From Rhynchobatus australiae (taxonomy: Eukaryota), in NCBI GenBank assembly GCA_034780895.1, contig JAUZTB010000087.1:36563539-36627538 (forward strand): DNA of 64,000 nt. Reading direction: 5' to 3'. Positions 1,578 to 56,930 of this stretch are shown here, piece by piece. Numbering within the stretch: the stretch's first letter is position 1; each line of letters begins with the position of its first letter. A program made the position numbers and the translations under genes. The notes below the pieces were generated by a model that ran no database searches, was not told the origin of the DNA, and worked only from the letters and a program-made list of their open reading frames with translations.

Positions 1578-1715
1578 GAGTTCTGATGAAAGGCCATTGA
1601 CTTGATAAGTTAACTCTGTTTCTCTCTTCAGAGATAATGCCTAACCTGCTGAATATCTTCAGTATTTTCTATTTTTATTTCAGATTTCCAGCATCTGCAG
1701 TGTCTTGCTTTTCCA
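1578..1715 (+). mobile_element. Older Penelope-type terminal repeat with decayed hammerhead
   Basis: GAGTT-CTGATGA-AAGGCCATTGACTT-GATA-AGTT-AACTC, then ...TTCCAGCATCTGCAG family tail. Confidence 0.7.
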
Positions 1716-2209
1716 GCAAAAGAAAGAACAGGCTAAAAATTTCAGCTGCATATGCTTGAAGACTCACTATAAATATACACAAAAATTGCATATGATTAGA
1801 AAACAGCCAGTCATCTCTGAAATACTCTGCATGAAACTATGAGCTGGGTTGACCTGGATCTGACCTCCCTCACCGATTTGCTTTGGGTACAGAGGGGTAA
1901 CTGAACTGACCCTCTATAGCTAAGTGTCATCTAACAATGCAGTGCAGGGTCCATACTTTGAGCAGGCCTCAGGGACTTGATGATGAAGCACCAATACTGG
2001 TGCTCCCTGGCAGCCTTTTGACATGTTTTTTTAGGTGCCTCTAACAGTCATACTTAAAAACTGTTCAAGTAGAACTAAATGAAACAATTAATAAACAAAA
2101 ACCCAATAAAAATACATTAAGATACAAGAAATTAAAAACATTAGTATAAATTTAGATAAAGTGAAAGAAGTAAATTACTTAACTGCATGTAAATAAAGTA
2201 AAATAAGTA

Positions 2210-2344
2210 TCAGTCCTGAAGAAGAGTCCTGACCTGAAACATTGACCACCTGCTTTTCTCCACGGATGCTGCCTGGCTTGCTGAGTTCCTCCAGCATCAT
2301 AGTGTTTTTCACGAGATTCCAGCATCTGCAGTCCTTTGTTTCTC
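2210..2344 (+). mobile_element. 135-bp solo Penelope-type terminal unit with hammerhead motif, 12-bp TSD
   Basis: GTAAAATAAGTA at 2198-2209 and 2345-2356 brackets the unit. The sequence is close to the reverse complement of 33867-34000. Confidence 0.85.
2211..2247 (+). ncRNA. Minimal type I hammerhead ribozyme-like motif (degenerate)
   Basis: GTC-CTGAAGA-AGAGTC-CT-GACCT-GAAA-CATT-GAC: CUGANGA and GAAA boxes around a short stem II, closed by GTC/GAC. Confidence 0.6.
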
Positions 2345-3864
2345 GTAAAATAAGTAAACCACTTTCCTGTAATTTCTTTTCAAATGAGGGTCGGTGATCA
2401 TATTCATATGCATGGAATTGCAATGGAATAGGCAGCCAGATCCCCTGGTTTCCAACCTCCAGTTTTTTTTTTCCATTTAAATCTTACAGCATAGTCGGGG
2501 GTGAACTGAAGACCAAGTGGCAGATAGCATTTGTCTACTCTTGCAGTTTTAATAGTTTATTTCAACACATTTAGCAAAAAAATTGAGCAAACCCTTGAGC
2601 CAGGGCTGGTAAATGTAAAATAATTGTTTTATGGTCCAGTGCATTGGAGAAGTCGCCAGAGTCACAACTCAAATTGTTATTGGTAAGTGTCGGAGTTAAA
2701 GTTAAAATCGAATTGAAGTCATTGAACTGCAGGAGGACAGTGGCCACAGAGTAATTAAGTTTAACATCATCCAAGATTTAGGACCAAAAGCTTAGAGCTA
2801 GGCACATAATTTTAATGGAGTTAATGTGAAAGAAATGATGGGCCACTGCAAGCAAATTGTTTGGGAAAGATTGTCCAGTAACATTTTACTGCAGGGCAAC
2901 AGAAATGCAAATTTAAAAGCATGTATGCAGGATAAATATTATATATTTAATATCAGTGAGCCCAGAATAAATAGGTCAGCCCCTAAAGGGATAAGTAAAT
3001 AAGTAAGTAAAGAGATAAAACTGTCCTCTGCCAATCCTGTGATGAGAAAAGGAATTTTCCTTTGATTGAGCAGAAGAACATGCACACCACAAAAAGGACC
3101 AGATTTTCCAGAATAATCATTGTCAATTTTCAGTATCATTATTCTGCATAACTGATTATAACTTCTAGAGTTCCAGGCACACATTTATGAAAGTGGAAAT
3201 CCAGAGATTGCTGTCAGCGATTCACCATTGAGGAGAAGGCTATGATCCAAATCTAGACTCCGTGTGAAGCTTAGCATGGGAGAGAGATCTTGGGTGGCCT
3301 ACATTTGCATTCTTCACTTGTAATGAAATTCTGAGCCAGACCAATGAAGTATAAAGGAAATTCTCCCTTCGGTATGAATGGAAATGAANNNNNNNNNNNN
3401 NNNNNNNNNNNNNNNNNNNNNNNCTTACATGCTTTATTGGTTTAATCATACAATTTTTTTCCAGATCTTTTTAATCTCAAATTTGTGTGCAAAATTCTGT
3501 ATTTTTGAAGTATTCAAATGTGTTTAAAAGAGTTTTGATATGTCTTGTATTTTATTCTTAAGGTATTTTTTGAGCATTTTATATCTTTTAACATTGAAAT
3601 TCATTTTTGTTTTGGCTGCCCCATGTGATGTTGAATTTCATGCAAAATACTTCCTCCAAGTGCAAGACCTCATCACAGAGAATTTCCCCCCACACCAACA
3701 CATATGACAATTCTAGTGCAAAGCAGTGCTCCCCACATCAACAACCATGCTGGCGGATGAAGTGGAAGTAGTTGCTGATAGTCATGAAGAGACCATTTTA
3801 TTAGCCTTGACAATTATTCTTTTGTATCTCCTCAATAGTTTTTTTTAATCTATATACACAATGC

Positions 3865-4355
3865 CATACTATAGGAAGGACGTACTTATGCTGGAGAGAG
3901 TGCAGTCACCAGCATGTTACCTGGATTGGAGGGCTTTATTTATGGGGAGAGACTGGATAGGCTGACCTTGTTTTCTCTGGAGCAAAGGAGACTGAGGGGT
4001 AATGTGATAGAGGTGTATAAAATTATAAGAGGCATAGATAGGGTAGATGGTCAGAATATTTTTTCCCATGGTAGGACCACCAAAAACATGAATGAATAGG
4101 GTTAAGGTGAGAAAAAGTAGTTTTAAAGAGCATTTGAGGGATAAGATTTTTTTATACTGAGCATGGAACTTACTGCCACAGGAGGTGATGGAGTCAGATA
4201 TAATGACTATAATTAAGAGACGTTTAGATAGGCAATGCACAGAAGGACACAGACCTAGTGTGAGCAAATGGGATTAGTGTATGCGGGCAAAAGGGTGGCC
4301 ATGGATGTTGCGAGCTGAAATGCCTGTTTCTGTGCTGTTCAACTCTATGACTCTA
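3865..4355 (+). mobile_element. CR1-clade LINE 3' end (HER1-like)
   Basis: MLPGLEGFIYGERLDRLTLFSLEQRRLRGNVIEVYKI is the CR1 ORF2 C-terminus. Ends in an ACTCTATGACTCTA tail. Confidence 0.85.
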
Positions 4356-5689
4356 AGCCCCAAATATCTTTGTTTCTCCACAGTACCAGGCTTCCAACTA
4401 CTTAGAAAGTGCTCTAAGTTACCTTTAAAGTAGATGGTGTTGTACTTTCCACATCTGCAGGGTTTTGCCAACTAACTTATCTAAGTAGTGCAAGGACCAC
4501 AAAGTAAAGGTCCCATCTTAGAGGTCCCAACTATGAGAGAAAATTAGTAAAATTTGGACTTTTAGGTTTGAAGGGAGATTATTTTATTGAGGTACAAGGC
4601 TGCAAAACTTTTTATAAATGGTAAACCTACTAATTAATTTAAACTGTAAGAACAAAAGAAAACGAAGGTCAAAGTTTTAAACAAATAAAAGATCTCCTTT
4701 ACGAACCTACTATTTCTACTACACAAAGGAATTTCAATCTAGTACTTAAAAAACTATATATAGATTGAGCACAAAAAAGATTAAATCAAAATATATATCT
4801 ACACTTTTCATTGAACTAGAGCTAGTGAATGAGACTTTTTAGTTTGACAGTTAATTTTCAATTTATATATTTAATTTGCTAAAAATGAAAAATATTTGCA
4901 TTTCAAAACCCGAAGGTTGAAAATCAGTAAAACTGGTCGTAATGTTTTGGGGTATACATGGCAGTTATATGAAGTAGCCTCTGCTGTATGTATAGTGTTT
5001 GNNNNNNNNAGTGTTTGCAGAACTTGAGCAAAATTAAATAAAACTATATTTCAAAATCCTTTATGTGCAAGGAAGTTTAGCCTGGAAATACCTTCAAGTC
5101 CATTATTTGTTCTCCTCAGTGTCCAGCTGATAGCCACTATAATATAAATGCTGTATAGACTTCCTGCTACCTAACTTAACAATCCTCCCAGCACCCGTTC
5201 TGAAAATAAAAAGAGTCAACAAATGGAGATGACTAGACTGAAAAACAACTCTGTTTATTTGCCTGGAATCCTCAACTCCATTATGGCATAATCAGGAGGT
5301 GCAGCCTGAGCTACCATCTCATTATCAAGATCAGTTGGAAGGCTAGTAATTTACTAAAACTTTTAAAAATGCTACTATTCAATGCAATATGCCTTGAACC
5401 TATCCAATACAGATGTACCCTTAGGCCTGTGTCAGCAAGCTCAAGCCTGCAATATAGCTGAACAAAACAGTTTAAATAAGCAAGTATTAGGAGATAGAAA
5501 CTAGTCTGAAAATCAGGACTATTGTCATCTATTTTTCTTGTATTTTCCCAAGGTCTACAGGAGGGATGTGAATCATCCTCATCAAATTCGACTGCTCACA
5601 GAAATTCATGTCTTATCTTCCACTTGGATCTTGATAACATGCCAGCCATAATCCTAACTAATGGATCTACAAAAGAGCCAATGTCTGTG

Positions 5690-7250: not shown

Positions 7251-10200
7251 AGGCAGAAAGTAAGCAAGTGGCAAAAGCATCTCCAAAAATCTGCTTTTGG
7301 AGATGGTTGTAACAGTCAAGCTATTAAAAAATTGACTACTTTCTGCAGTGTGCAAGCAAATTCAATGGAAATTACACAAGTATTGTTAATAGTGAAATGG
7401 GAATCGGCCACATAATGGGAACAGAAAGTACTTAAAATTATTTCTGAGAACCAATGCTACATTGCATGTAAATTGCCCATAGTCTCAATTTTCTCTGCAT
7501 TCACAGTTATGGATGAAAAATATCCCAGTNNNNNNNNNNNNNNNNNNNNNNNNNNNNNNNNNNNNNNNNNNNNNNNNNNNNNNNNNNNNNNNNNNNNNNN
7601 NTCTCATTAATTGAGCAAAGTGGACTTCATCCGTCCCTGAAAAATTCCACTTTTAACTGGTGTCAACATTTTTGCTTGAAGTCAGAAATTTCCATTACGC
7701 AAGGCCAGATATTTCTGACATAAACAAACCATTTCTTTGGATCTAATACAGGTACAACAGACTTTAACCCTACAGCTATCATTCTGCTCATGTTACTTTC
7801 AGATGTTTGAAACTGTTTTAACTTCATACAAAGTTTTTTTTATCTGTAGATCAAACTATTTTAATGAAGAAATGCATCATTTTTTAATGGATCTGCAATC
7901 TGTTGTTGAATTGATTTACTGCCAAAAATATTGCTCTTAGATTAGATATCCTTTCTGCCTTGCTAAAGAATTACTTATGCGGATTTGAACATAACTTACG
8001 TCCTTACATTTATAGCCAATTAAAAAAAAACACATTTAATTTATTTGTTCAGTACTGATGAGATTCTTGTATAATGCAAATATGTGTAATTGCCCCCCCA
8101 AAAAAACAATTGATCTAAGGATAAACTGGATTTTCCTTCCTAAAAAATTCAGATGGATTGGTGGAATTTAAAAAAAAGTTAAATATGTAGCAAAAACCTA
8201 AAAGCAAAATACCGTAAATCATGAAAATCTAAATGTTGAGAAGATACTGGAAATATTCAATGGGTCAGGCAGCATTTATTGAGAGAGAAACAAAATAAAT
8301 GTTTCAAGTCATGACAAAGGTAAGACAATTTTTAAGTTGGAGCAGAGAAAACAGGGAGGGACAGAGAGAACAGAAGAGAGGATNNNNNNNNNNNNNNNNN
8401 NNNNNNNNNNNNNNNNNNNNNNNNNNNNNNNNNNNNNNNNNNNNNNNNNNNNNNNNNNNNNNNNNNNNNNNNNNNNNNNNNNNTATGGGAGAAAATAGAA
8501 AGCAGTGCGCTTCCCATCACAATTACATCCCAAAAAATCCAAATTCATACTCCCTCTGGCATAACCCCTCAATCACAAGCACTGCACAGCTTGGAACATT
8601 GCCAATGGGGAGAAGGAGGATAAAGGTGTGAAGGACCAAATATCTGCAACAGAAATAGCTCTTGTACTTCATTTACTTGATCTTCAGAGAAATGTATATA
8701 CTGAGAAATCGGCTCTGAAGACTATACTGTTAAATAACTTTTATTTTACGGTATATTTTCCAAACTGAAACAAGGAATTAGAAGCTGTTATATTACTTTC
8801 CACTGAATCCTAAATTCATGCTGATTAATTCCCCGAACCATTTCTACGCTTCCTGCTTTGCACCATGTTTTAAGGTGGCTAGCTGAGATATTTCAGTGAA
8901 ACGTTTGAGGATGGTGGTGATTCATCAAACAGATCCAGACATTGTCACTGAGGATCCTGCTTCTAGTATCCTTTATCTTGCTTTGATAGGGCTCCTGGGT
9001 GCATTCATGTGCTGACACTGAAAGGGACTCTATCCTCATGGGTTCATTACCACTATCATGAGAGTCAGCATCATCTGTTAATTATTTATGGACCACCAGT
9101 TCAAGTGTTAACATGCAAATAGACAAAACTGTCCGAATTAAGACCTGGAAGCTTGTGAAAATGCTATGTTGAGACATCCATGAGGCCGTTGCAAATGCTA
9201 TGCTAGATGCCATCAATAACTTTAATATCCTTCTTTGAAACCATGCTGCCACACTTCTTTCCTGGACTGTTAAGCTCTTATGAGTATTCTGCATGGCATT
9301 AGCAACTTTCAATATTGCACTGTAGATTCATGTGGTGGTTTTGTCCCAACACCCACAAAACTTTCTACATAAAGTTGTTGTTGACTAGAGAGTGTTATTT
9401 TGAAAGCTAAACCCATGAGATGTGAATGTTTTTCCAACCTTTGTGAAGCTCTCCATGTTCCAGTGCCAAATTTACGTGATCAGTAAGGCTTAGCAGTTAA
9501 AATTTAATTGACCGGCTTTCTCCTTCCTCGTGAGTTGGTATTTCTTGGCTGAAGCTCATAAAATGACATGATGGAAGGCAGGGCAATGATGGGGTACAAG
9601 TTCTGCAGCTTCAGTTGCCTGTCTGCTCCTTTAAAAGATTTCCTTCATGCTTCAAGTCATTTCCCAAGATGCTAAACATGTAGAAGTATATAAATGATCA
9701 CATGTTTCCTTGAAAAAGTACAATGGTTGAGTCAAATTTCAATTAAAATATTCCACAGTTCAATGAAAAGGAATGATATTTCCACTTATTGATGCTGTAA
9801 GGTTGTTATAACTGCTCTGTGCTCTGTGGCAGCTTGTGCTGTGGTGGAAGTTTTACTCACTGCTTCAGTCACCTGCCTCCATAAACTTACTGGGAGTTCA
9901 CAGTCATTTGGCAGATGACTCACAATTATCCCATCGCCTGTCGGCTGCCAGTTATATGTCATGTATGATACCAATGCCATTGACTTTCGTGAACTGAGTA
10001 CTGGATAAGACATATCCAATATTGTATATGCCCCACACAAGTTGAAATATATCCCATTTACCACTTGTCCATTCATTTAATAAATATGACATCGACTAAA
10101 AAGTTATTAATCCATGGGGCTTTCCAGCCCCTGTCCCCTCTCAGCTAAAGCTTCTATTTTGTTCTTAAACTGCTTTTGTTATCCAAGAGGCACCAAAAAG

Positions 10201-14825: not shown

Positions 14826-15002
14826 GATCAATTTTGTTAATTACTCATGCATTTTAAGTAGTTATTGTAACTCAGTTATGCATAAGGTGGATGAGTTTTG
14901 CATCTTTTAAATTTGTCAAAGACATTTAAGAAATAGTTGCTCCTGGCAAATATATTTTACATAATATACAGTATATTTAGTTGAGAGAGAATATTTTTTT
15001 AA

Positions 15003-15120
15003 AAAACTGCAGCTGTTGAAAGTCTGAAATAAAAAGTAAAGAAGGTGGAAACATTCAGCAGGCCAGGTAATATCTTGTAGAAAGAGAAATGGACTTTATG
15101 TTTCAGGTCAAAGACCCTAT
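15003..15120 (-). mobile_element. Penelope-type terminal repeat remnant
   Basis: Reverse-complement similarity to the family (GGGTCTTTGACCTGAAACAT..., CTGGCCTGCTGAATGTTTCC). Similar remnants lie at about 8200-8315, 30875-30940, 32600-32690, 39240-39420, 49861-49940, 51850-51990 and 61655-61735. Confidence 0.6.
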
Positions 15121-19470: not shown

Positions 19471-19850
19471 AGGTGCTAGCGTAGGTTTGTCAGCAATGTG
19501 TACAGCGGGACTTGGCATGAGTCAGGATTCAGGTAGCAGAGTGGGAGTTTTGGCAGATGGAAACTAATCAGGAGAGCAATGAAATAGTCAAGACTCAAGC
19601 TATAACAATTATAAACAAGGTTTTCAGCAGCAGATGGGTTGAGGCAGGACCCCTTATAATGAATGCACATGCCTGGTTTTATTATAAATTTCTCCCTATG
19701 TATATTACCTCTCATTCTTAAGTGCATTTAATTCAGTTTTTTCCATCTCCAGGTTAACAATTAATTAAAAAGGATCTACAATATGAAATAAAAGCAGAAA
19801 TACTACAAACATACAGTAGTTCTGCAATATTTGTGGAAGAGAAGCATAGG

Positions 19851-19886
19851 GTTAATGTTTCAGGTCAATGACATTTCATCAGAACA
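19851..19886 (-). ncRNA. Minimal hammerhead ribozyme-like motif in a Penelope-type repeat (about 19780-19886)
   Basis: Minus strand reads GTT-CTGATGA-AATGTCATTGACCT-GAAA-CATT-AAC. Both core boxes are intact. Confidence 0.55.
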
Positions 19887-25035: not shown

Positions 25036-25037
25036 AT

Positions 25038-30514: not shown

Positions 30515-30870
30515 GGTAATTGGTTTATTATTGTCACGTACTGAGATACAGTGAAAATCTTTTGTTTACATGCCATGCAGACAGATCATTCCATATACAA
30601 GTACATCGAGGTCATCCAAAAGGGGAAAAGAAACAGAATGCAGAATATTCTGATGAAGTGGACTGCATTCACAGCTCTGCAATTTCTTGTGCTCTTGGGC
30701 AGAGCAGTTGCCACACCAGGCTGTGATGCATCTGGATAGGATGTTTTCAATGATGCATTTGTAAAAATTGGTGAGGGTCATTGAGAACACACCAAATTTC
30801 TTTAGCCTTCTGAGGAAGTAGAGTTGCCGGTGTGCTTTCTTAGTCATAGCCTCCATGTGGCTAGACCAGA
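30515..30870 (-). mobile_element. Rex1/Babar-type LINE 3' fragment
   Basis: KKAHRQLYFLRRLKKF...FYKCIIENILSRCITAWCGN is the typical Rex1/Babar C-terminal region. Tail TTTCACTGTATCTCAGTACGTGACAATAATAAA. Confidence 0.8.
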
Positions 30871-31813
30871 AATCCTTGAAATACTAAGCAAGTCAGGTGG
30901 CATCTACAAGGTGAGAAACAGAGCTAATGTTTCAGACCAGTCGTCATCTCTCTGTTCAATAAATTATGCTTACTAGAAGATGAAGCAAATTTTCTTTTAT
31001 ATATTATTAATATTTTGATATTTATTCTGAAATCCAAATCTGACGTTTGCCCCACTGCAGATTTATACAGCAAATTTATGGAAGCAATATTTGACAGACA
31101 CAATTTTAAAATATTGTAGAGATTAATAATGAAAGATACAGTTAAAATATTTGCAAATGTACAAAACTTGTATTCTACAAAACCTGAGAAGTAATGATGT
31201 ATCAGCATGATCTTGCTGGCCATGAGGATGNNNNNNNNNNNNNNNNNNNNNNNNNNNNNNNNNNNNNNNNNNNNNNTAATATGCAAGTACTTTTTATATT
31301 TAAATCACTTAGAGTCTTTTGTAAAGACATCTTTCTTTTATATTTCTTTCATCTCTTACATATATATATAACAGTTGTTATAGCTGTCAATGGAGCAACA
31401 CTCTCCAAGGATATTTTTAGTTTTTTTTAAAGAGACCCAGTGACTGACATCTAAACAAATGAACACTTGCTGTGGTCCAGGCTGGCTGACATTGGCCACA
31501 ATGTCGAGGTCAACATCAAAGTGCCACGTGAACATTCTGCTGTGACCCACTGCAAATATCAGCCTCTTCAGCAAGAGAAGAAAATTATCTCAGTACATAC
31601 AATTCTGATAGCTCAGAATGTTTGAAATTTTCTGAAACTTATTGGAAATATTGATTTATATGTTGGAAATATTGATATATATATTTTGTTTTGTTCTAGC
31701 AATACCACCTCAAATTTATTATTTGAAAATTCTTGGTGTGTAGATGGTGGATTTATGGTATTACATTCTCAATGGCTCCAACTAACCAATTCTTTCCTTC
31801 CAGCTTCACTATT

Positions 31814-31928
31814 TAGTTCTGATAAAGGGTCTTTAACCTGAAATGTTAATTGTTTTCTTTCCACTGATGCTGCCTGACCTGCCAAGTGTTTCCAGAATTT
31901 TGTGTTCTTATTTCCTCTGCAGTCTCTT
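31814..31928 (+). mobile_element. Penelope-type terminal repeat with decayed hammerhead
   Basis: AGTT-CTGATAA-AGGGTCTTTAACCT-GAAA-TGTT, then GATGCTGCCTGACCTG. Confidence 0.7.
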
Positions 31929-33068
31929 GCCACAGTGTACCCTGGAGATTGTGGAGGAAGTGAATTGGCTACCAGATTCACTGTGGTAGAGGGGAAGGTA
32001 ATCAGGGATAATACTGGGGTAAATGAGGAGAAGATCATTGTGTTGACAGGATTGTGGCAGAGGATTTTCCCTGTGGAGACAATGAAAAGGTTTGGAAGGA
32101 ATTGTAAGCAATTGGGAACAGAGGTTTGGTCAAGAATATTATCTGAGGATATGATCGGGGTGATGATCAGGCCAGAGTTATTGGAACAGTTTATGAAGAT
32201 GATCAGAGGGGTCATCAGGGAGATAGTGAACATGACATGCAGAGAATGGAGGGATACAGATCATGTGCAAGCAGATGGGATTAGTTTAATTTGGCATCAT
32301 GGTCAACATTGACATTGTGGGCCAAAGGGCCTCTTCCTGTGCTGCACTGTTCATGTTCTGTGACTGAAGGAGGGGTTGTTAGCCAGATGATAGTGATAGC
32401 TGAGGACATTGGCAATGAGTGGGATTGGTTTAGGGGCAATCAATGACTTTGGAAAATTCATCACCATTCTTCACCTGTTCCATGATGACATGTAACCCGG
32501 ATCCTCAGCAAAGGATCCATCACAGACTAGTACACACTGGATTAGTGTTCTCTCACCAACCCTCTTCTCATCGATTCTGATCGAGAACACTTGTTTTACT
32601 TCTGACAGATGCTGCCTGACTTGCATTGTTTCCACCATTTCCTGTTCATGTTTCAGATTTCTAGCATCTGCAGTTTTGTTTTCCTCTTCTCAATACAGCA
32701 CTTAACTTCCAACAAGCTCCCCAGAAGAATGGAGTTAATCTACAGGACAAGAATGAAATGGTTCAAGCTTCATCACCTCCACTCCAGAACCAAGTTCACT
32801 CTAACTCAGTCACTGAGTTTTAGGAGGCAAAAATACATGTCTACATGCACATTTGGAGGCTGAGCACTAAACTATCTTTATTCTTTCACTGCAGTTCAGA
32901 AGGGAATGGGCCTCATACTAAACATATGAAAGATTTGAACGTCCACAGTGAAAAGTAACCTCACCTATTCAATGGAACCCCTAACTCAAGAGTGCTCAGA
33001 TTGGAGGAGAAACATCAGAGAATGCCTCTCCCACAGGAGTAAGTGGGAAGCAAAGTGGTAGCATAGCA

Positions 33069-33297: not shown

Positions 33298-33866
33298 CAT
33301 TTTTAAAAATTAATTTAAAAATGGTGGAATCCTTTCAGTCTAACACTATCTCCACCATTGGTGGCAGGTTTTGCATAGAACTCATTGGTCACTTCAAAAC
33401 CTACAAAACTATGGTGGAAATAAGTGATCTTTGACCCAAAGGCTCTGTCTAAGAAGTGACAGATAATACTGCTTTTTATTAAGGACATTGAAATAATACA
33501 AACTGAAATGTCCAGATAGCAGTCCTTCCACACCCATTTCACTATATTTTCCAATTGCATTCTTTGGAAGTCTAAAATACAATTTGCCTTTGTGTACAAG
33601 AGGTGTGATTGTATTTGTTAGTTGAATAGCACATTGATAGGCACACCCTCCATGCAAAATAGGTATTTCGGATATCTAAAGTGGATTGTTATTACATGAT
33701 AGCCCTTGCACAATGTACACCCATAATAAAAACACAAAATTCCCAAAATGGTCAACTAACTGTTAGTATATGTGGAGAGATTAACAGTTAATATTTTGGA
33801 TTGGCATTTTTTGAAATAAATCATAATTCAGACCTTTTATAGTGTTCTGATGAAAGGTCACAGATC

Positions 33867-34770
33867 AGAGAAACGGAGGACTGCAGATGCTGGAATTTAG
33901 ATGAAAAACATGATGCTGGAGGAACTCAGCAGGCTAGGCAGCATCCGTGGAGAAAAGCAGGCGGTCAATGTTTTGGGTCAAGACCCTTCTTCAGGACTGA
34001 AGATAGGAAAAGGGGAAGCCCAATATATAGGAGGGAAGGCAGAGCAGTAATAGGTGGACAAAAGAGCGAAGGCAGGGTGGGCACATAGGTAGATGCAGGT
34101 AAGAGAGAGTGATAGGCAGGTGTGGGGGAGGTGGGAAGAGCAGATCCACCAGGGGATGGGTAAAATGTAAGAAGAGAGAGGAAAGAAAAGGCTAGGAAAG
34201 GGAAGAAGCATAGTGGGGGGGGAAGTTTCTGGGCGGGAGGGGGTGGATGGGGATTACCTAAAGTGAGAAAATTGAATATTCATGCCATTAGACAAGGTCC
34301 CAAGACAGAAAATGAGGTGCTGTTCCTCCAGTTTGTGCTTGGAATTCTCCCAGCAGTGGAGGAGGCTGAGGACTGCCATATCAGTGATAGTGTGGGAGGG
34401 GGAATTGAAGTGACTGGCAATGGGGAGATGCAAGTCGCGGTTATGGACAGAGCACAGGTGTTCTGCAAAACTGTAACCTAGTCCCTATTTAGTCTCACCA
34501 ATGTAGGAAGAGGCCACACATGGAGCACTGAATGCAGTACATGATATTAAGGAAGGTGCAGGTGAATCTCTGTCTCACCTGAAAGGACTGTTTGGGTCCC
34601 TGGATGGAGGTAGTGTTGGGGCAGGTGTTGCACCTATGGTGGGGAGAGTGGAAAGTTTCCAGGGTGGGAGTGGATGAGTGGTGGAGGGAGTAGTGAATGA
34701 GGAAGTCACAGAGAAAGCAGTCCCCGTGAAAGGAAGAAAGAGGTGGGAAGGGGAAGATATGCTTGGTGGT
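33867..34770 (-). mobile_element. Penelope-like element 3' part (GIY-YIG plus terminal repeat), 11-bp TSD
   Basis: FQVRQRFTCTFLNIMYCIQCSMCG on the minus strand. Terminal repeat with hammerhead core at about 33964-33999. GGTCACAGATC is duplicated at 33856-33866 and 34771-34781. Confidence 0.88.
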
Positions 34771-34989
34771 GGTCACAGATCTGACATGTTAACACTGCTT
34801 CCATCTCTGAAGATGCTGTCTGACCTACTGAGTATTTAACAGCATTTTTATTTCTTATTCATTGTATATTTTCAGCATAACCAAATCTAATTTGCAACAT
34901 CCACATAACTGAAAGAATCCATCATAACTAGCCTATAATTCCAGATATATAGTTCATCTCTGACCAGGCACACAAACACTGAAACATTA

Positions 34990-35085
34990 CACACAAAATG
35001 CTGGGGTAACTCAGCAGGTCAAGCAGCATCTATGGAGGGAAATAATTAACATTTCAGGTTGAGACTCTTCATCAGGACTGGAAAG
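34990..35085 (-). mobile_element. Penelope-type terminal repeat with hammerhead motif, runs into a large N gap
   Basis: Minus strand reads CAGTC-CTGATGA-AGAGTCTCAACCT-GAAA-TGTT, followed by GATGCTGCTTGACCTGCTGAGTTACCCCAGCA. Confidence 0.75.
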
Positions 35086-36424
35086 TAAGAGGGCAGAAAC
35101 CAGANNNNNNNNNNNNNNNNNNNNNNNNNNNNNNNNNNNNNNNNNNNNNNNNNNNNNNNNNNNNNNNNNNNNNNNNNNNNNNNNNNNNNNNNNNNNNNNN
35201 NNNNNNNNNNNNNNNNNNNNNNNNNNNNNNNNNNNNNNNNNNNNNNNNNNNNNNNNNNNNNNNNNNNNNNNNNNNNNNNNNNNNNNNNNNNNNNNNNNNN
35301 NNNNNNNNNNNNNNNNNNNNNNNNNNNNNNNNNNNNNNNNNNNNNNNNNNNNNNNNNNNNNNNNNNNNNNNNNNNNNNNNNNNNNNNNNNNNNNNNNNNN
35401 NNNNNNNNNNNNNNNNNNNNNNNNNNNNNNNNNNNNNNNNNNNNNNNNNNNNNNNNNNNNNNNNNNNNNNNNNNNNNNNNNNNNNNNNNNNNNNNNNNNN
35501 NNNNNNNNNNNNNNNNNNNNNNNNNNNNNNNNNNNNNNNNNNNNNNNNNNNNNNNNNNNNNNNNNNNNNNNNNNNNNNNNNNNNNNNNNNNNNNNNNNNN
35601 NNNNNNNNNNNNNNNNNNNNNNNNNNNNNNNNNNNNNNNNNNNNNNNNNNNNNNNNNNNNNNNNNNNNNNNNNNNNNNNNNNNNNNNNNNNNNNNNNNNG
35701 ATATCTGCATTGTATACAAGGTGCCCAGCAACCACAGCCCTTTCGTTTTCTGAAAGAATATTTTTAATTAAGCTTTTGGATTCAAATCTCCCCCAATCTT
35801 ATTACTAAATAATTAGAGGACTCCTATTTCCCCTTTTAAAGGCCAAGATGCATTTGCAAGGAGGTAATTACAAAAATAATACTTTATGTTTAAATCCAAT
35901 GTTTTCATCCCGTGTGACTGCCTAAGAAAAGGATATATTCCATTTGTTTTAAAACTAGTCTAATAACACATAACTTTTGTTTAATTTCCCCCTCCAAAAT
36001 TTTATTTTGTTTCCTGTTGGGTTCAGTAAGCAATCCGTTTTCTCTTTTTTGGTGTTGATCGTCCTCTAAAGGAGGACACCTACTGATATGTGCATTACCT
36101 TCACTCGATAATCCGAGAACATAAAATGGGAATGTATACTAGTCTGACAGTTACAACAATCTTGTATTTTCACCATTAATACAGTAGTACACACACGACC
36201 CCCTGCTTCTCGATATCAGAGAAAAACAACTGTTACACTTTGGGAAGCCAGCACCACGAATCCCAGCCTGTCAACTGGGGAACCCCCCCAGCGCACAGTG
36301 TTGCATTTACAGCGAGCAAGACTTGCAGTACCGCTACCATCCACCTACCATGGCCGGGGCAGCGGCGAGCCCACTCTGCCGGCTCGGTGGGGATCGCAGC
36401 AACCGTGTCACACAGCGCGGGAAG

Positions 36425-36502
36425 ATGGCGGATTGCTCGCTCACAGACGAAGACTTCTCTTCGTTCGTCTTCGATTACCTGACAGAAAACGCAGAGTCTC
36501 AG
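36425..36502 (+). CDS. PPARGC1B: First coding exon of PPARG coactivator 1-beta (PGC-1beta)
   Basis: AAGATGG start encodes MADCSLTDEDFSSFVFDYLTENAESQ (26 codons), followed directly by the donor CAG|GTAAGG in phase 0. It resembles the vertebrate PGC-1beta N-terminus as I recall it (human [26 protein letters not shown], also a 26-codon first exon) and lies in a CpG island. Exon 2 was not seen in the window. Confidence 0.9.
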
Positions 36503-36570
36503 GTAAGGAGCCGTGCTCTCGCTGGCTGCATGCTTGGCGACACACCGTCGCCAGTGAGTTGGGTGGCAGT

Positions 36571-36597
36571 GCTACTGCTGCTGCTGTTGCTGCTGCT
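36571..36597. repeat. Imperfect (CTG)n tract at the start of intron 1
   Basis: GCTACTGCTGCTGCTGTTGCTGCTGCT. Confidence 0.85.
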
Positions 36598-38689
36598 CCT
36601 CCATGCAGATGCCGGTGCTCAAGCTGAAGCGACTTTGCCTGTGCACTGCCGGTCTCTGGAAAGTCATGTGTATGTAGTGGCGGCGAGCGGAGCACCGGCT
36701 TCACGTGGAGCTCGTGCTCAGAACTCTGGCGGCCCGTGCGCCAGCCGGCGGAAGGCTGGCGACCCGCTGCCCGATTGTCTTTTGCTACATTGTTGTTACA
36801 TTGTTGCAAGTGTCATTCCCCGGGCTCGCTTCCTTCATTCATTCCGGACACGTGNNNNNNNNNNNNNNNNNNNNNNNNNNNNNNNNNNNNNNNNNNNNNN
36901 NNNNNNNNNNNNNNNNNNNNNNNNNNNNNNNNNNNNNNNNNNNNNNNNNNNNNNTCATTCATTCCGGACACGTGGGTGCACAAAGTTACAGCAAATAGCT
37001 TTATATTCTTCTTTCGACGGGGCCGTGATTCGTACCAAAGTACGTGTCAGGGGCAAAAAAAATACAACTACTACTTTTTTGAACCCCCCCCCAAATGAAA
37101 ATCAACCGATCAACGCAAAATGCTAAAATCAGGTTGGAAGAGGAAATTAACAATATATTTTGTTTCCTCTTTGTGGCCAGTTGGAGACGCATATATAATT
37201 TTCTCAATTCTCACAAAACAGTGAATCAGGTTGATTCAGCAGTGTGGCTTGCGTAACTCGGGATATTTCTTACTCAACGTTAATGCTTGGATCTCAAGTA
37301 AGATAAAAAATAGCAGCAAACTCCGGTTGTAGCCACTTTCCAATTGGTGACATGTCAGAGCAGTCTTGCTCTTTTTTTTCTGTCCAAACTCGCATCGTTC
37401 TCTTAAGATGCGTAACTGTGAATATCAACTGGGTTGCATATCGGGCACAGACCTTACTTTCCCATCCTCAGCATATTAGCTAGCAGAAACTTGGATAGTT
37501 TCTTGAATGCGTATTTTTTAAAAAAAATATATCATTGATGTTTGCGCAGGGGAGTTCTTTTATACGTTTTAATATGCAACATTTATCTAGCCACCGCAAA
37601 AAAATTGAGACACGCTAATCATGTGTAGTATATCATTTCATGTTATATAAAAACTATAACTGCCGATAATGTACATTGCGTAAGGGATGCGAGCACGGGT
37701 TATGAAAGACAGTTTGATAATGTGTCACATGAGAGCCTGCTGCACCGACGAATGCTGACGTCTCTGCTTTACTACTGGGAGCTGAGAATGAACCCGATGC
37801 CACTGCATTTCTGGCACCACACGCTGCGCATCTCAAGTAGTGCGGCCACATAACGCGTACTTTCCAGTGATTAAAACCAAACCTCTTGTTTTGATTGTAG
37901 AATGCAACTCTGTCCGGTTATGCCAGACGATCGCGCTTGACCAGAGGCAAACTTGTGCTTGCAGTTTTTATGGGTCTTGCGAAACAGCAATGTCCTTTGC
38001 GAAATGAAGGCAAAGGACTGCATTCAATATGTAATTTTTTGACATGTTGTAACTTTATAAGGTGTGGTCCGAAACATTTAATATATTAGGATGGGGTTTG
38101 CGAAAGCTTTTTAATGGGTCACCTCAGTGTGACCCTTGACACTGCCATCTAGTGTTACAGTTATTTTTGGATGAAGCTGCATCTGGATTGTAACAGCAGC
38201 TGAGAGAAGCAACGGCAGCATTTGAAGTCTTGAAACAATCACGCTAATATACACATTGACTGATGTGGGCACAGTAACAAAACAGGTTGCGAGAGTTCAA
38301 TTTTAAAGAATGTGATTGGATGGAAGAAAATGGAAAATTACACATATGTGCTTGGCATTGGTTAAATTGAGAATATTGTTTAGCTTTTGAAAGACAGCTA
38401 TTGCATTAGGTGAGATCCTTTAATAGGAAATATATCATCTTTGGTATTTTTCTCAAAATCTGCTGAAGGGGAAAGAAGAGTCTTAGCTGCATACTGATAC
38501 TCTTGAACAACTTCTCATAACCCTAAGAACAGCCATTAATAATGCAAAGCCTGAATCTCACTAAAAGGACCTTTTAATGTTGACTGTTTGAGTAATTTTG
38601 TGGGAAGTACCTAGAAATACCAAAGCAAATTGATGTAAAGCTTGGCACAAGCAGAGCTTCAGCAGAATCAATTGATTTATTCATTGACA

Positions 38690-39030
38690 TTACCCCAGGC
38701 CACTTTCTCCTGGACCGGTGCAGATGGGCCACAGCCCATAGCCTGATAGTGCCCCAACCTCGCACTGTCCACTTCAATCTCTTCCCTAAGATCTACAAAC
38801 AGGATTGCTCTGGTAAATCAATTGTTTCTGCCTGCTTTTGTCTCAATGAACTTATCTCCTTATACCTTCACTCTATCTTGTCTTCCCTTGTCCAATCCCT
38901 TCTCACTTACATCTGGGACACTTCTCATGCCCTCCACCATTTTAACAACTTCCAATTCCCTAGTCCCAACCATCTCATCTCTACCATAGCCTTCAGTCTC
39001 TATCACAGCCACATGTCCTTCCTCAGTACA
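38690..39030 (+). mobile_element. Penelope-like reverse transcriptase fragment
   Basis: PQPRTVHFNLFPKIYK..GKSIVSAC...LISLYL..ILSSLVQSLLTYIWDT resembles the PLE RT motif LPKIHK..GRPIVS...YIRDT. Confidence 0.75.
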
Positions 39031-42000
39031 AGGTTACTGTGTCAAATTGTGGGTTAGTGTGTAAGTTGCTACTTTCATAAAGTCAAAATTTAAAAACTCT
39101 TGAGTTTTATTCTGTGGTCCCAAATTCTTAAAAAGGACCCAAGGACATGACTTCAGAGATGAGTAGCTTGCGTCAGTTGCTAACATAGGATGGTTGAACA
39201 GTGGCCTTAAACTCCAATATAAGTATCAACAGGAATGCAAATAGAAAATTTTGTTGAAAATACTCAGATCAGATGTCATCTGTGGAGAGAGAAATAGAGC
39301 TGATGACTTGAAAAGTTTATTAGGCTTCTCTGTTCATAGTTGCTTCCAGGCTTGCCAAGTATTAAAAGCACTTCCTCCTTTTTCTCAGATTCACAGCATC
39401 TGCAGTGCTTTGCTTTTGATATCACACACAGTGATTGTTGGAGAGGCTATGATCCAACAATTCTGTGGTTAGAAAGGATACCCAGCTTACAAAGATAAGG
39501 TGATCACAAAAATCATTCAAAACATCACAGCCCCTTCACTTCCCTGTTGTATTTGCTTAGTGTCTTCCCTTGGAGGATGAGATCCCTGCACTTGGAAACT
39601 GACGCTGCTTGTAACAATAAGATGCACTGCTGCTGCATTTATGGATTATAAAGGTGACCATGTTCCTTTGTGTGTACAATCTATGCTTGGAAATGGAAAA
39701 GTAACAGTAAGTCCATGCCTTGCCATGGCCTATGTAACCACAGATATAAATGCCTAAATGCTTAAATTACCACAGGTCAGCTTAAAAGAATGAATGATAT
39801 TGCATTAATCTTCTGTTGTTGAAGGAAAACATTATAAAGATCCCAGATTCCTTGTTATCTTATTTCCATTATCAAAACACCAAAAAAACTCATACTAAAA
39901 ACCATATTCATCCAAATGTGAAGCTGTCAGATTTATTTTTAAAGCACAAAATTTTGTATATTCTCAAGCTAGTGTTATGTGAACAAGATAAGGACTTATC
40001 CTTGTACAGTGTCTCTAATATTCCAGGAGATGGTGGAGTCTTGGCTGGAGATAGGAAAGCAAAAAGATTACATGAGATTACAATTGTAAAAAGAGAACGA
40101 TCAGGCTTTAGTTGAGAGATGGAATAAGATGGAGGTGGTTTGGAAAGAAGCGTCCATGGATGTGATAGAGAATGTTCTTTGATGGTGGAGCAGAGTGGAG
40201 AACTTGCAGCTTCAAGGTCAGAAGGTGTATGCTGAGATATGAGGTTGGAGACATTTGTAAATAGGGGTGAGGAATTTGGCTTAAGTGTGATGGGGAAAAG
40301 GGTTCAGTGGGTGCCGCTGGTGCTATAACTGGAGTGGAACATAGCACAACATTGGATATGATGGTGGAGTTTTCACTCACATTTATACTTAGAGACCACT
40401 TATGTGATTATTGCAATAAAGAATAAATTTATCATGAGGACATTGGCTGTCATCTCAGAAAAGTTTATATGACCCTTTGGCTTAGCAGCTGCAATGACAA
40501 CCAGTAGGTATATTGATTAATAAAATATTACGTAACCTTTTATCACATTGAGGACACTTGCTTTGTGAAACAAAGTATTGATCACATTGCTGGTAAAATC
40601 TATATTAAATCACATTACCTTCAGGTTGGTTAAGACACAAAGATCAATGGGCAGCAGGTAGGTCCTGCTCAAAGGTGACCCCTCATATCTTAGAAATGCA
40701 AAAGGACTTGGTTGAGCTGAAGCACCAATGTATATCGTGCTTTCTAGCATACACTACTGCAGAATCAAATTGCTTCAACACAGTTAGCAAGTTCTCTGCT
40801 TGCCCTACTTAATTTACAATAAAAGCAGAAACTAGATCAATTGTATACTCCACCAGTAGGGGGCCCAGGACTTGTACCACTACACTTGGTTTATTATATA
40901 ATCTGGATCAAACAGCTGATCAAGACGAATAACATGTTTAAAAGGAGGAGTGTTCATTATCAGATGTTACATTCCTGCGTCTTAATAGATAATAGTCCCA
41001 TTAGTTTTAAATTTTAGAAATATTTTTAAAACTTGATGTGTTTGTTTTCCCCCAGTTAAACAATTAATTATATTGTTTTCCTGTGCATATTTAAGGTTAT
41101 CTTTTTGACATGAGTGGCAGATTGTTTTATCATAGTAGTAAGTTGCTTTTGGTGTGATATTTGGCAAGAAAGTTCAGAAACTTATACCTCAGATAAACAC
41201 AACCAATACACCTACTGCTGGAGCATTTGTAGAATGCTGATGAAAATGATCANNNNNNNNNNNNNNNNNNNNNNNNNNNNNNNNNNNNNNNNNNNNNNNN
41301 NNNNNNNNNNNNNNNNNNNNNNNNNNNNNNNNNNNNNNNNNNNNNNNNNNNNTATCTAAAATGTAAAAAAGAATGTAAAAAAGAAAAAAAAACTTGCAAG
41401 TGTAGTGACTTAATGCTTCCTGCAATATTGTAAAGTATTTCATAAGAATCAAATTATTTTTCAAGTTTAATTATTATTGTCACGTAGGCAAATGCAGTTC
41501 TGCCTCAGTCAACATCACCAGAAACAGATTTATTTGCCTTTCATCTCATCTGTAATCAAACATATTTTTCAGTTTGCTTAAGATGCCAGTGCAGCTAGAT
41601 GATGGAAGTGATAGCGGGGAGTTTTATGTAGACAGCAGCTTGCATGTTACAGTGATGTTGAGTACACATGTCATGGTTTTGCATGGGTGGAATAGTGTTG
41701 CAGTACATCTCACCACTGCAACAACCAAGATGAGGTGCATAACTTCATCCTGTTGAAGCAGTAATCTGAGACATTTGTCTTTGGCAAATAGGAGAGGTTT
41801 GTTTTAAAAGTGTCAAGCCACTTAATGAGAGTTCATTTGCATTGAAGTGTGACTAGTTCAAAGTGTGAGAACACATAGTGACACCCTGCTTGTTGCTTTG
41901 TGTTTTTCATTCCTTGCTTTGACATTGCCCTTCTGAAGTTCTCTTAGTGAAGACAGTTCATGTACACTAAGATTTACACTTGTCTCATGTTTACTAATCT

Positions 42001-45000: not shown

Positions 45001-45529
45001 GGATGGATGGAGAGTGAGGACATGCTAAAGTTAGCGATGTGCCAAGAATAAATGGTGGAAAAATTGGGTTCAATTTAAAGTATTATTCTGTATTTACTGA
45101 TGTAACAATGGTGACTGCACTTCCAAGTAATCATATGTGAATTATTGTTGAGATGCCTGAGGGGCATAATTATGAGTTACACAAAAGTATGTTCTTTCAT
45201 GTTATTCTTAGGATTACTTAATAATAAATGATTAGTTTGAAANNNNNNNNNNNNNNNNNNNNNNNNNNNNNNNNNNNNNNNNNNNNNNNNNNNNNNNNNN
45301 NNNNNNNNNNNNNNNNNNNNNNNNNNNNNNNNNNNNNNNNNNTGTACTATTCATATTGTGAAAACTTGTCAGGATATTTTTCATGAAGTAATATTTAATC
45401 ACTACAAAATTCCACATCTTGGAAAACATGCGACAATATCAGTGTTGTCAGTACCTGCTTTTGTTTCTGTTTCTGATACATTCACTAAAGGACTGATTAA
45501 TATTTGGGTATGCCTGCTCTTGTAGGATT

Positions 45530-46310
45530 CTCCCTTCCAGTATGTGCAAACATGACCAAAGAGCTGAATTCCAGCAGAGAGGTGAGAGTGACTTCCCTTG
45601 GCATCAAAGCAGCTTTTGACTGGGGTGTGGCAAGTGGTAAAACTGAAGCTAATGGGCACGAAGGAGTAAATGCCCCATTAGCTGGAGTCGTACCTTACAC
45701 AGAGAAAGATGATTATGGTTGTTTGAGGTGAATCATCCCAGCCCTAGGATATTGCAGCAGCTGTCGTAGACACAGCCGTCTTCAGCTGTATATTCAGTGA
45801 GCTTGCTTCCATCATGAGTGCTAATGTTCGCTGAGGATTGCAGAATATTCAATTCCAGCTGCCACTCCTCAACAAATAAAACTGTCCATGCCTGTATGCT
45901 GTGAGACCTAGACAACATGCAGTCATGGGCTGAAAACTGGCAAGTATTCTGTAGCTTATGTGCCAGGCAATGATCATCTCTAATAAGAGGGATTCTAACC
46001 ACCTACTCTTGTAATCAAGGCATTACTGTCGTTGAGTTCTCCACTGTCAAAATCCTGGGTTGTCACCATTGTCCAAAAGTTTAACTGGACAAGCTACATA
46101 AATATAAAGACTATAAGAGCAGATCAGAAGCTGCGTATGCTGTAGTAAGTGACTTGTCTCCGGACTCCTTGAGCTCTTTCTGCCATCTACAAGGAACAAG
46201 TGATGAGTGAATGAAATACTCTCCATTTGCAGAGAAAAGTTGCAATTCAAAAAATATTTAAGAAGCTTTACACCAAACAGGACAAACCACCAGTTTGATT
46301 AGCACCCCTT
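45530..46310 (+). mobile_element. Decayed LINE RT fragment (CR1/L2 group)
   Basis: VTSLGIKAAFD (RT LD..KAFD motif) and ATGTTCGCTGAGGATTGC (MFADDC-like). Confidence 0.65.
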
Positions 46311-47276
46311 GTCTTACTAATAGCTTAAGACATTTTAAGGGTAATTAGTGACAGTAGAAATATGCCAATGACCAACTGGATTGAGATTGCCTAAAATCAT
46401 TTCACATGCAACTCTTTATTGCCAGCAGTTAAGTGCAATTGTTATGTTAGTATTCTGGATTTGGGACAGACCCTTGAGATGAAAGTCCATTGTTTAACCT
46501 ACTTCACCATGTACTTTTGTTTTTTGGAATTTCTTGAGCAAAAGTAGGTCAAGATTTCAAGTAACATTGCATGCAAAACCCATCCACAAATATTTCCCTT
46601 TCTGTTTGATATCTTTATTGTATTTTTCCACCTTGGGTTTAGTTTTTCATGTAAGATGTGAAGCTGTTTCTACGTCTGTGCAAAATTTAAATTACAACCT
46701 AGATGTTGTGTGACACACACTTTAGCTGGCACCAGTTTTCTGCTCTCCATCTGGAGAATTATGCAGCCTTTACTCTGTGGCCCTATCAAGTATAAAGTCA
46801 GCAACTTGCCACAAAGGAAGTGATGTGCATAAATCTGTTCAAAAAGCCACAACCCTGAGTAACTTGTTTTACAAATGTTAAGCAGCTTAATTGTGCCAAT
46901 TTTGAAGAGAAACAGGGTAAGGCTAACCAGCCCTTTGAGTTTGTTCCAATATGTAGGCAAAAGTATCTGAACTCCATTTTTTGTCTTTGATCCATATCTC
47001 TTAATCCCTTCACAGTGAAAAAAACTGGCAATCTCTTAAAAATATCAATGAATCCAATGCTTGTGGAGAGAATTGAAGATTTCCATTACCCTTTAAGCAA
47101 AATTATGCTCTGAATGACCTATCAATATGAAAAGGACACCACAAAGAAATACAGGAATAGACCATTTGGCCTCCTGCACCTGGACTACTATTCAGTTATA
47201 TCAAGGGTAACCTTTCATCTCAGCCCAAGTTCCCTGTACTAATTCCTTGGTTCCCTTGATATCACACTATCTACTT

Positions 47277-48295
47277 GGTCCACCAAGTCCCTGTGAAGGT
47301 TCACTCATCCCTTTCCACCCATCCCATGGTATTTTCCTCTGTAGTTGTAGAAGGTGCAGCACTTGTCCCTACACCTTCTCCCCCACCGCCATTCAGGGAC
47401 ATAAACAGCCCTTCCAGGTCAGGCAAAGATTCACTTGCATCTCCTTCAATCTCGTCTACTGCATTTGGTGCTCTCGATGTGGTGTCCTCTACATCGGCAA
47501 AACCAAGCATAGACTAGGTGACTGTTACGAGGAACATCTGCGCTCTGTCCACGATGGCCGTCTTGAGCTCTTGGTTGCATGCCATTTCAACTCCCCCTCC
47601 CATTTACATACTGGCCTATCAGTCCTCAGCCTTGTCCACTGGCAGAGAGAGGTTAAGTGCAAACTAGAAGAACACCACCTCATATTCCACCTGTGTAGTC
47701 TACAACCCAATAGCATGAACATTGAATTTTCCAATTTCAGTTGCCCTGCNNNNNNNNNNNNNNNNNNNNNNNNNNNNNNNNNNNNNNNNNNNNNNNNNNN
47801 NNNNNNNNNNNNNNNNNNNNNNNNNNNNNNNNNNNNNNNNNNNNNNNNNNNNNNNNNNNNNNNNNNNNNNNNNNNNNNNNNNNNNNNNNNNNNNNNNNNN
47901 NNNNNNNNNNNNNNNNNNNNNNNNNNNNNNNNNNNNNNNNNNNNNNNNNNNNNNNNNNNNNNNNNNNNNNNNNNNNNNNNNNNNNNNNNNNNNNNNNNNN
48001 NNNNNNNNNNNNNNNNNNNNNNNNNNNNNNNNNNNNNNNNNNNNNNNNNNNNNNNNNNNNNNNNNNNNNNNNNNNNNNNNNNNNNNNNNNNNNNNNNNNN
48101 NNNNNNNNNNNNNNNNCCCTCTCATCTCTGTATACGGGCTAACTTTCCTCTACACTCTCAGTCTTGATGCAGGGTCTTGACGCTGAAATGTCAACCATCC
48201 TTCTACCTTCACAGTTGCTGCCTGACCCACTGAATTCTTCCAGTTTGCTTTTCTTTGTTTTGCTGCAGATTGTAGCATTTGCAGTGTCTTGTGTC
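47277..48295 (+). mobile_element. Penelope-like element 3' part: GIY-YIG endonuclease plus terminal repeat, 7-bp TSD
   Basis: FTCISFNLVYCIWCSRCGVLYIGKT...HFNS...QPNSMN is a GIY-YIG domain with the CxxC insert typical of PLEs. A degenerate hammerhead-type tail spans 48158-48295. TCTACTT is repeated at 47270-47276 and 48296-48302. Confidence 0.88.
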
Positions 48296-56928: not shown

Positions 56929-56930
56929 AC

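Follow-up and report, generated by a model that had tools for sequence, protein, structure and literature searches.

Dispersed minimal hammerhead units in Rhynchobatus australiae as probable 3' remnants of Penelope-like elements

The short hammerhead-bearing units dispersed through a 64,000-nucleotide stretch of Rhynchobatus australiae DNA (here called the window) are very probably the decayed 3' ends of 5'-truncated Neptune-type Penelope-like elements (PLEs), each comprising a pLTR with a minimal type-I hammerhead and an optional tail of ~30 nt. This reading is drawn from the GIY-YIG genes found upstream of every main subfamily, the inverted pairs, the bimodal 3' ends and the target-site duplications. 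The assignment to the Neptune clade is a likely one, drawn from the linker motif and a match made by eye to the Neptune rows in part of the supplement of PMC8557442 rather than from an RT tree.

Units in the window and their link to Penelope-like genes

The eight copies named in the first-pass annotation (1578, 2211, 19886, 31814, 33842, 33999, 35080, and 48158) all belong to one ~135-bp family, and its count of seven to eight copies in the window was too low, with 18 to 20 fragments found. None of the eight, each described there as carrying some decay, is fully intact. The bare CTGANGA..GAAA pattern did not by itself distinguish the window, with 11 occurrences versus 6.5 ± 2.8 in shuffles and 8 of 100 shuffles reaching 11.

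Two units start at the hammerhead 5' edge: a subfamily A unit with pLTR end and tail (1578..1707, +), in which GAAA is changed to GATA, and a subfamily B1 unit with tail (2209..2344, +), which has intact core boxes, has lost the ACGT palindrome and carries stem mismatches. The same combination of intact boxes, lost palindrome and mismatched stems is seen in an A unit without tail (19780..19885, −; copy 19886). Other A units are truncated inside stem II (8205..8311, −) or inside the hammerhead (15001..15119, −), have a lost or decayed 5' part (30866..30954, −), carry G8>A (31811..31914, +; copy 31814), retain only the 3' part (32592..32678, +) or are decayed (49861..49962, −). A units also form a head-to-head inverted pair at 39232..39412 (39305-39232, −; 39296-39412, +), and truncated A units form another at 51852..51994. 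A B2 unit without the full tail (34988..35086, −; copy 35080) has lost the ACGT palindrome and carries stem mismatches, and its upstream side enters a 595-N gap; a 3' part of a unit lies at 61654..61725 (+).

The annotation's link to GIY-YIG genes was borne out at both of its loci. At the first, a 5'-truncated B1 PLE (33867..34770, −) has inserted into an A unit (33843-34877; copy 33842) and is flanked by an exact 11-bp target-site duplication: the 5' half of the A unit (33843..33866, +), broken in stem II, terminates in the left copy (33856-33866), and the 3' half (34771..34877, +) opens with the right copy (34771-34781). The inserted element contains a frameshifted Cys linker and GIY-YIG (34635-34260), a 3' UTR and a hammerhead unit with tail (34005-33867, −; copy 33999) that carries G12>A; the endonuclease (34260-34635, −) lies 259 bp upstream of copy 33999. 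At the second locus, the Cys-linker and GIY-YIG end of a Penelope-like ORF (47301..47750, +; open frame 47211-47750) lies 405 bp upstream of copy 48158, across a 367-N gap from its B-type unit (48156..48289, +). That unit carries A9>C and C3>T, of which A9>C is a lineage state and not decay alone.

A genome sample of 120 stretches of 10 kb (988,245 non-N bases) gave 247 matches to four subfamily models (1 per 4 kb; 2.5% of sampled DNA) and 235 matches to one pooled model, with 0 in a reversed-sequence control, in agreement with the earlier estimate of roughly one unit per 4 to 5 kb. Genome-wide, exact hammerhead patterns numbered 1,632 (0 in the control), loose hammerhead cores 7,784 (436 in the control) and first-look candidates for the endonuclease piece 49,261.

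GIY-YIG sequences occur upstream of A, B1, B2, and B3 units, both core variants included. They were detected within 1 kb upstream of 13 of the 247 sampled units (one or two being double-counted neighbors), and ~95% of units have no detectable endonuclease upstream. Conversely, most loci picked by their endonuclease have a same-strand unit 185 to 510 bp downstream, with none in 7 of 29. The nearest named proteins are from rays (51 to 61% identical) and combine an RT-type YIDD/YVDN motif, a Cx4CxxC linker and GIY-YIG; the CX2-5CxxC linker is present in window frame 47211, in decayed form in the 34770 fragment, and in ray proteins P0001-P0008. Pfam GIY-YIG matches fell below the curated cutoff (E of 0.021 to 0.13 for genome pieces and 0.0005 for P0001). 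In locus L100, RT-like motifs could be discerned by eye upstream, and homology between loci reached ~2 kb upstream with no intact ORF; Pfam gave no RT match on the L100 segment. The assembly is gappy, and we recovered no full-length element or intact full-length copy from it, nor any 5' pLTR-ORF junction among 267 tails; beyond those tails, no sequence was shared except for two unrelated repeat matches.

Hammerhead architecture and structural variation

The proposal of a minimal type-I hammerhead in several subfamilies is supported, with A, B1, B2, and B3 as the four main ones. In all four families, helix III is absent, positions 15.1-16.1 form a palindrome present as ACGT or its CpG-decay products, and an additional A lies between 9 and 10.1 beside a helix II of five pairs. 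Helix I measures 5 bp in B2, 4 in A, 3 in B3, and 3 plus an A-C mismatch in B1. The 10.1-11.1 pair is most commonly G-C in B1, B2, and B3, whereas in A it is A-U in 46 of 122 copies and G-U in 40. The CUGANGA and GAAA..UH core boxes predominate in A, B1, and B2a but are not kept in B2b (U4A) and B3/B4 (A9C), where the core changes are fixed, and lineages with either fixed change have spread widely. Core and stems are both kept in only 2 of 125 sampled copies, and most copies are predicted to be inactive as ribozymes.

Rfam hammerhead models, to which the first-pass annotation had looked for confirmation, gave no match at an E value of ≤10 in the window or in six loci chosen for their well-kept motifs. 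In minimum-energy folding of monomers and dimers and cofolding of five natural copies, the active fold was not the minimum; the method is uninformative here. Natural hammerhead core variants described in the text of PMC3088659 include U4C, C3U-G8A, and A6C. Our literature search, covering text and a minority of supplements, found no precedent for U4A or A9C among natural core variants. Changes of this kind may already be listed by Lunse et al. (RNA Biol 14:1499), a study discussed in the review PMC6765202.

The claim that stems covary between copies is mostly not borne out. Covariation is seen for two pairs between source lineages, where two double-sided stem changes occur beside uncompensated stem I breaks and the two fixed core changes; among copies, pairing is mostly at or near shuffle level. 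In eight tests against shuffles, p ranged from 0.026 to 0.64, with three below 0.05 and an excess of at most 2.4 points. The stem I variants cited as covarying are rare in family A: the outer pair of GAGTT/AACTC occurs in 9 of 122 copies versus C-C in 49, and the T-A of GTGTT/AACAC in 3 of 122 versus A-U in 55. Nor does the GACCT variant of stem II amount to covariation in B copies (G-C in 42 to 56 versus G-U in 12 to 34 per family); it is best read as CpG decay. A hand-picked alignment of 18 rows did outscore shuffles (2 of 500) but was rejected as proof of covariation because it mixes related subfamilies.

In B1, B2, and B3, the hammerhead core has changed at least as quickly as the DNA downstream of it. 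Family A shows slightly higher conservation in the core than downstream (0.158 versus 0.198, p = 0.03). Pairing is also in slight excess in A (p = 0.048 and 0.03) and in sampled B3 (p = 0.026); these signals may come from search-model selection and age mixing. With pairing near shuffle level and copies that decay like neighboring DNA, structural selection on the ribozyme of individual copies is not supported. Selection of that kind is visible only between source lineages.

Copy ends and alternative origins

The 3' ends of copies are bimodal, at about +89 to +100 and +120 to +126, the second bounding the optional tail. Among 247 sampled units, head-to-head inverted pairs numbered 45 versus ~5.6 expected, and tail-to-tail pairs numbered 7. 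Target-site duplications with at least 8 matched bases flank 19 of 96 non-inverted B copies versus 2.1% of 472 control pairs. The 5' starts pile up at the hammerhead 5' edge (93 of 262 in −8..+1 versus 77 of 556 simulated), a boundary common to all four families; no pile-up was found at the cut site, with 15 of the 262 starts in +25..+32.

The units were likely inserted by a reverse transcriptase and GIY-YIG endonuclease that the element itself encodes, and a mechanism can be proposed. The enzyme would nick DNA and then prime reverse transcription inside the RNA at one of two internal sites, which lie ~95 and ~125 nt downstream of C3 and would account for the two 3' ends. Synthesis would run toward the 5' end and mostly halt within ~150 nt, most often at the hammerhead 5' edge, and fold-back or second priming would produce the head-to-head pairs. 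Where the core of a source element is canonical, its hammerhead would need to dimerize through the ACGU palindrome in order to cut, probably assisted by protein.

We give about an even chance that the hammerhead 5' edge is the RNA start. A plausible if somewhat doubtful alternative for the 5' pile-up alone is that it reflects a 3' splice site or a hot spot of template switching. A pyrimidine tract plus CAG ends at −3 in all four families, the text of PMC4209133 places the end of a D. virilis intron at the 5' end of helix I, and 64 of the 154 copies starting at −9..+1 lie within inverted pairs. However, non-inverted copies show no shared upstream exon, the only shared upstream stretch among the matches listed joining three A copies; a spliced first exon was rejected on the same ground. 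In two standard RNA-seq runs of another labeled organism, 7,861 and 11,206 reads matched, mostly 85 to 95% alike and on both strands, with no RNA-end pile-ups, in a data type that is uninformative about the RNA start.

We consider it improbable that the ~135-bp unit moves as a non-autonomous element in its own right (SINE-like or a solo retrozyme), with its own internal promoter and with mobilization in trans by the Penelope protein. The 5' boundary shared by four families and the ~95% of units without an endonuclease would fit such an element, and no upstream DNA is shared in 50 of 71 A copies, as would be expected of a short non-autonomous element too. There is precedent as well in the portions of the literature consulted, where rotifer pLTR sequences alone could mobilize DNA in trans (PMC3846280) and the Penelope of D. 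virilis contains an internal promoter (PMC2377424). However, GIY-YIG genes precede every main subfamily, both core variants included, and 5' ends form a continuous spread in the upstream direction, 85 of 369 lying beyond −40. By analogy with the anole element, whose template, according to the text of PMC11167929, requires sequence past the RT starts (the first 172 nt of the ORF), solo units would also be missing a needed part.

Very unlikely is a non-LTR retrozyme in which tandem hammerhead repeats self-cleave, circularize and spread as circular RNA, the form considered here for the first-pass idea of a retrozyme-like system: head-to-tail tandem units with a hammerhead each were found in two cases only (76 bp apart at L063/L064; 161 bp apart at G000:C1:39771403 and 39771564), and part of a preprint (10.64898/2026.07.22.740005) reports pLTR-derived retrozymes in one chondrichthyan, but the window holds no unit-length tandem array, the core is minimal rather than canonical, copy ends are not piled up at the cut site, copies bear PLE insertion marks, every main subfamily has GIY-YIG-linked members, and same-strand neighbors within 500 bp are near chance (23 among 247 units, some of which are split copies or belong to mixed families, versus ~15 estimated by hand).

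Relation to known systems and significance

At the class level, the finding of minimal hammerheads (min-HHRs) in PLEs is already published: Cervera and De la Peña (2014, PMC4209133) describe them, in the text considered here, in pLTRs of metazoan PLEs, including fish Xena, Poseidon, and Neptune. The present units share with those the type I form, absence of helix III, ACGU palindrome, extra base at 9/10.1, short helix I, several consensus families, and occurrence mostly as single dispersed motifs, which that text ascribes to truncated PLEs. They differ in coming from a cartilaginous fish lineage that the same text does not name, in the A-U or G-U at 10.1-11.1 of family A, and in fixed U4A and A9C cores versus the U3-A8 variant given there; the 7,784 core matches compare with its ~4,000 for coelacanth and ~9,000 for Xenopus, obtained by different search methods. 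Our literature search found no paper on this hammerhead repeat in sharks or rays, Repbase and Dfam lying outside the comparison.

As in the Neptune-clade EN+ PLEs of PMC8557442 and PMC3846280, to the extent that those sources were covered, RT-like sequence is followed by a Cys linker and then by GIY-YIG at the C terminus, and there are optional tails of 30 to 40 bp, head-to-head inverted truncated copies, short target-site duplications, and insertion into another PLE in opposite orientation; unlike in those elements, a full-length intact copy was not recovered here. In Poseidon PAc of Anolis carolinensis (Frangieh et al. 2024, PMC11167929), internal starts of reverse transcription set the limits of the tail, and the hammerhead likewise lies ~110 to 140 nt upstream of two tail-bounding 3' end points, although PAc belongs to another PLE clade and the text of that paper makes no mention of 5' ends piling up at the edge of the hammerhead. 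Animal non-LTR retrozymes, as presented in parts of PMC7229834 and 10.64898/2026.07.22.740005, have a type I hammerhead, a short unit, and PLE kinship in common with these units; they form tandem units with a hammerhead each and circular RNA, whereas the units here are dispersed or head-to-head, with tails and PLE gene links.

According to the text of PMC8557442, it is unclear what PLE hammerheads do; in that of PMC11167929, cutting could be dispensed with in vitro, where hammerhead mutants still inserted. Judging from the very successful lineages with an altered catalytic core, hammerhead cutting is likely not required for spread. We tentatively propose, short of calling it probable, that RNA starting at the hammerhead 5' edge, reverse transcription from ~95 or ~125 nt downstream, and run-off would have produced hundreds of thousands of stumps of ~100 to 135 bp, and that endonuclease-bearing U4A and A9C lineages amplified about as well as canonical ones. 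If that is true, such amplification would mean that either the hammerhead need not cut or protein rescues the cutting. This genome holds natural pairs of sister lineages, one canonical and the other with a U4A or A9C core, each in many copies, and these make the role of PLE hammerheads directly testable, and at ~2.5% of sampled DNA, the units matter for repeat annotation in cartilaginous fishes.

Membership, abundance and setting of the repeat family

The eight sites at which the first-pass annotation had placed dispersed hammerhead units (1578+, 2211+, 19886-, 31814+, 33842+, 33999-, 35080- and 48158+) are indeed members of one repeat family of ~135 bp, and profile searches identified 18 to 20 fragments in the window. 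In a genome sample of 120 segments, each 10 kb long and placed at round-number coordinates of large contigs (988,245 non-N bases), such searches returned 235 to 247 fragments versus 0 in the reversed-sequence control, which is ~1 per 4 kb, in line with the 1 per 4 to 5 kb guessed earlier, and 2.5% of the sampled DNA. Extrapolation from these large contigs suggests a genome total of several hundred thousand fragments. Clustering of the sampled copies that reach the hammerhead (164 of 235) gave four families, A (79), B2 (39), B3 (30) and B1 (16), with sampled copies 73 to 84% identical to their own family's majority sequence; finer clustering suggests ~7 lineages.

Genome-wide, a tight hammerhead pattern had 1,632 matches versus 0 in the control, and a loose core had 7,784 versus 436. 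Within the window alone, the bare motif count showed no excess over chance; Rfam hammerhead models matched neither the window nor six loci picked for well-kept motifs, and all eight named copies have at least one defect.

The pieces at 33842 and 34771 constitute one unit, interrupted within stem II where a minus-strand Penelope fragment 904 bp long is accompanied by an exact 11-bp duplication. Contigs of run X8 span both junctions (33708-33889 and 34745-34900) with 8 to 9 differing letters each, and the nested insertion is therefore shared by the organism of that run. Elsewhere, the window holds a minus-strand Gypsy-type LTR retrotransposon remnant (53530-56938; Pfam), in which separate open frames encode a DUF7041 gag-like piece, RT, RNase H and integrase, and a GC-rich region (~36150-36900) containing several long open frames, without a Pfam match. 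A short plus-strand piece near 36430-36500 in this region presumably resembles exon 1 of a gene for a PGC-1-family coactivator.

Penelope-like element origin

The units are the 3' ends of Penelope-like elements (PLEs). GIY-YIG sequence lies just upstream of members in all four families, and unit 3' ends cluster at two points ~30 nt apart. Among the 247 sampled units, head-to-head inverted pairs number 45 versus ~5.6 expected and comprise 84 units, and tail-to-tail pairs number 7. Of 96 non-inverted B copies, 19 have flanking duplications of at least 8 matched bases, versus 2.1% of controls. Inverted pairs, two 3' end points and target duplications are all marks of PLEs according to PMC8557442 and PMC3846280. 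A first-look search gave 49,261 genome-wide candidates for the endonuclease piece of the window. Among named proteins, those nearest to this piece are ray proteins; they carry RT-type motifs together with a Cx4CxxC linker and GIY-YIG, and in a by-eye comparison resemble the Neptune rows in the PMC8557442 supplement. A cartilaginous fish is therefore the likely host. Counting against this origin, an endonuclease lies within 1 kb of only 13 of 247 sampled units, Pfam support for the element proteins is weak, and no full-length copy was found. The retrozyme-like system proposed earlier did not hold up, as the window holds no unit-length tandem array and same-strand neighbors among the sampled units are about as frequent as chance predicts.

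Several head-to-head pairs (loci L066, L291 and others) form long hairpins with sub-threshold matches to Rfam microRNA precursors, and are a possible source of double-stranded RNA.

Hammerhead decay and core-variant lineages

Between families, two stem pairs changed on both sides: 2.1-1.1 is U-A in A and C-G in B, and 10.1-11.1 is A-U or G-U in A and G-C in B. In B3 a C-G pair has become U-G through a change on one side, and unpaired states occur at 2.4-1.4 (A-C in B1, A-A in B3) and at 2.5-1.5 in A (C-C). Each between-family change probably arose once, in a source element. Among copies, pairing exceeded shuffles by at most 2.4 points (eight tests, p 0.026 to 0.64, three below 0.05). The outer pairs GAGTT/AACTC and GTGTT/AACAC, read earlier as covariation, are rare (9 and 3 of 122 A copies) and are best read as flank or chance. 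The core is changing at the same rate as downstream DNA or faster in B1, B2 and B3, and slightly slower in A (p 0.03). Of 125 sampled hammerhead-spanning copies, 16 keep a canonical core; core and stems both survive in 2, and ACGT as well in 1.

Two lineages carry fixed core changes. Position 9 is C (A9C) in 18 of 21 sampled B3 copies and, by hand count, in 89 of the 100 matches that head a list of 1,528; the 48158 copy shares this state. Position 4 is A (U4A) in 17 of 34 sampled B2 copies and in 44 of the 100 matches that head a list of 3,105 (hand count), together with other diagnostic sites. GIY-YIG genes lie directly upstream of both variants. U4 and A9 are consensus core positions, with other natural variants catalogued, in PMC3088659. 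Alternatively, A9C could be an extra C inserted between G8 and an A acting as A9. At G000:C1:39771403 and 39771564, two identical U4A-type motifs share one strand at a distance of 161 bp.

Unit ends, proposed mechanism and implications

Among 369 copies chosen without regard to motif, 262 start within -40 to +50 of hammerhead C3. Of these, 93 start in -8 to +1, versus 77 of 556 when starts were simulated uniformly, although alternative 3' UTRs missing from the models, chiefly in A, would likewise stop alignments there; among B copies alone the count is 46 of 117. Only 15 of 262 start in +25 to +32, around the predicted cut. Non-inverted copies starting at the hammerhead 5' edge are flanked by unrelated DNA. 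At that edge, YCAGTY, which we take to resemble an Initiator motif, also closes a pyrimidine tract in splice-acceptor-like fashion. Two further pyrimidine-tract and CAG motifs inside the unit, at ~+35 to +60 and +95 to +120 of C3 in all four subfamilies, presumably resemble 3' splice sites; an ATG comes after the first. Penelope of D. virilis has an internal promoter (PMC2377424) and an intron end at helix I (PMC4209133).

Unit anatomy, the endonuclease-gene link, the end distributions and decay are directly established. By analogy with anole Poseidon (PMC11167929), GIY-YIG would nick DNA, reverse transcription would begin internally at two sites and would stop early or run off at the RNA 5' end, and inverted pairs would arise by fold-back. 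A canonical-core hammerhead would cut only as a dimer or with protein help, and lone dispersed copies are predicted to be inactive as ribozymes. RNA-seq reads of a differently labelled organism (standard libraries) fall on both strands without end pile-ups, a result with no bearing on this scheme. Loci L063 and L064 (G000:C1:2828230-2828339) are near-perfect B1 hammerheads 76 bp apart within a short repeat that runs head to tail and includes part of a third copy; they are a naturally occurring candidate for a dimer assay.

In PMC4209133, minimal hammerheads of fishes, coelacanth and frog are massively scattered single motifs from truncated PLEs. The class is thus already published, and these families add members to the known PLE hammerheads; no publications on these shark or ray families were found in the literature searched. 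Bench work would be worthwhile on the core-variant lineages and on the 5' pile-up, and the dense unit copies could serve as cryptic splice acceptors within host genes.
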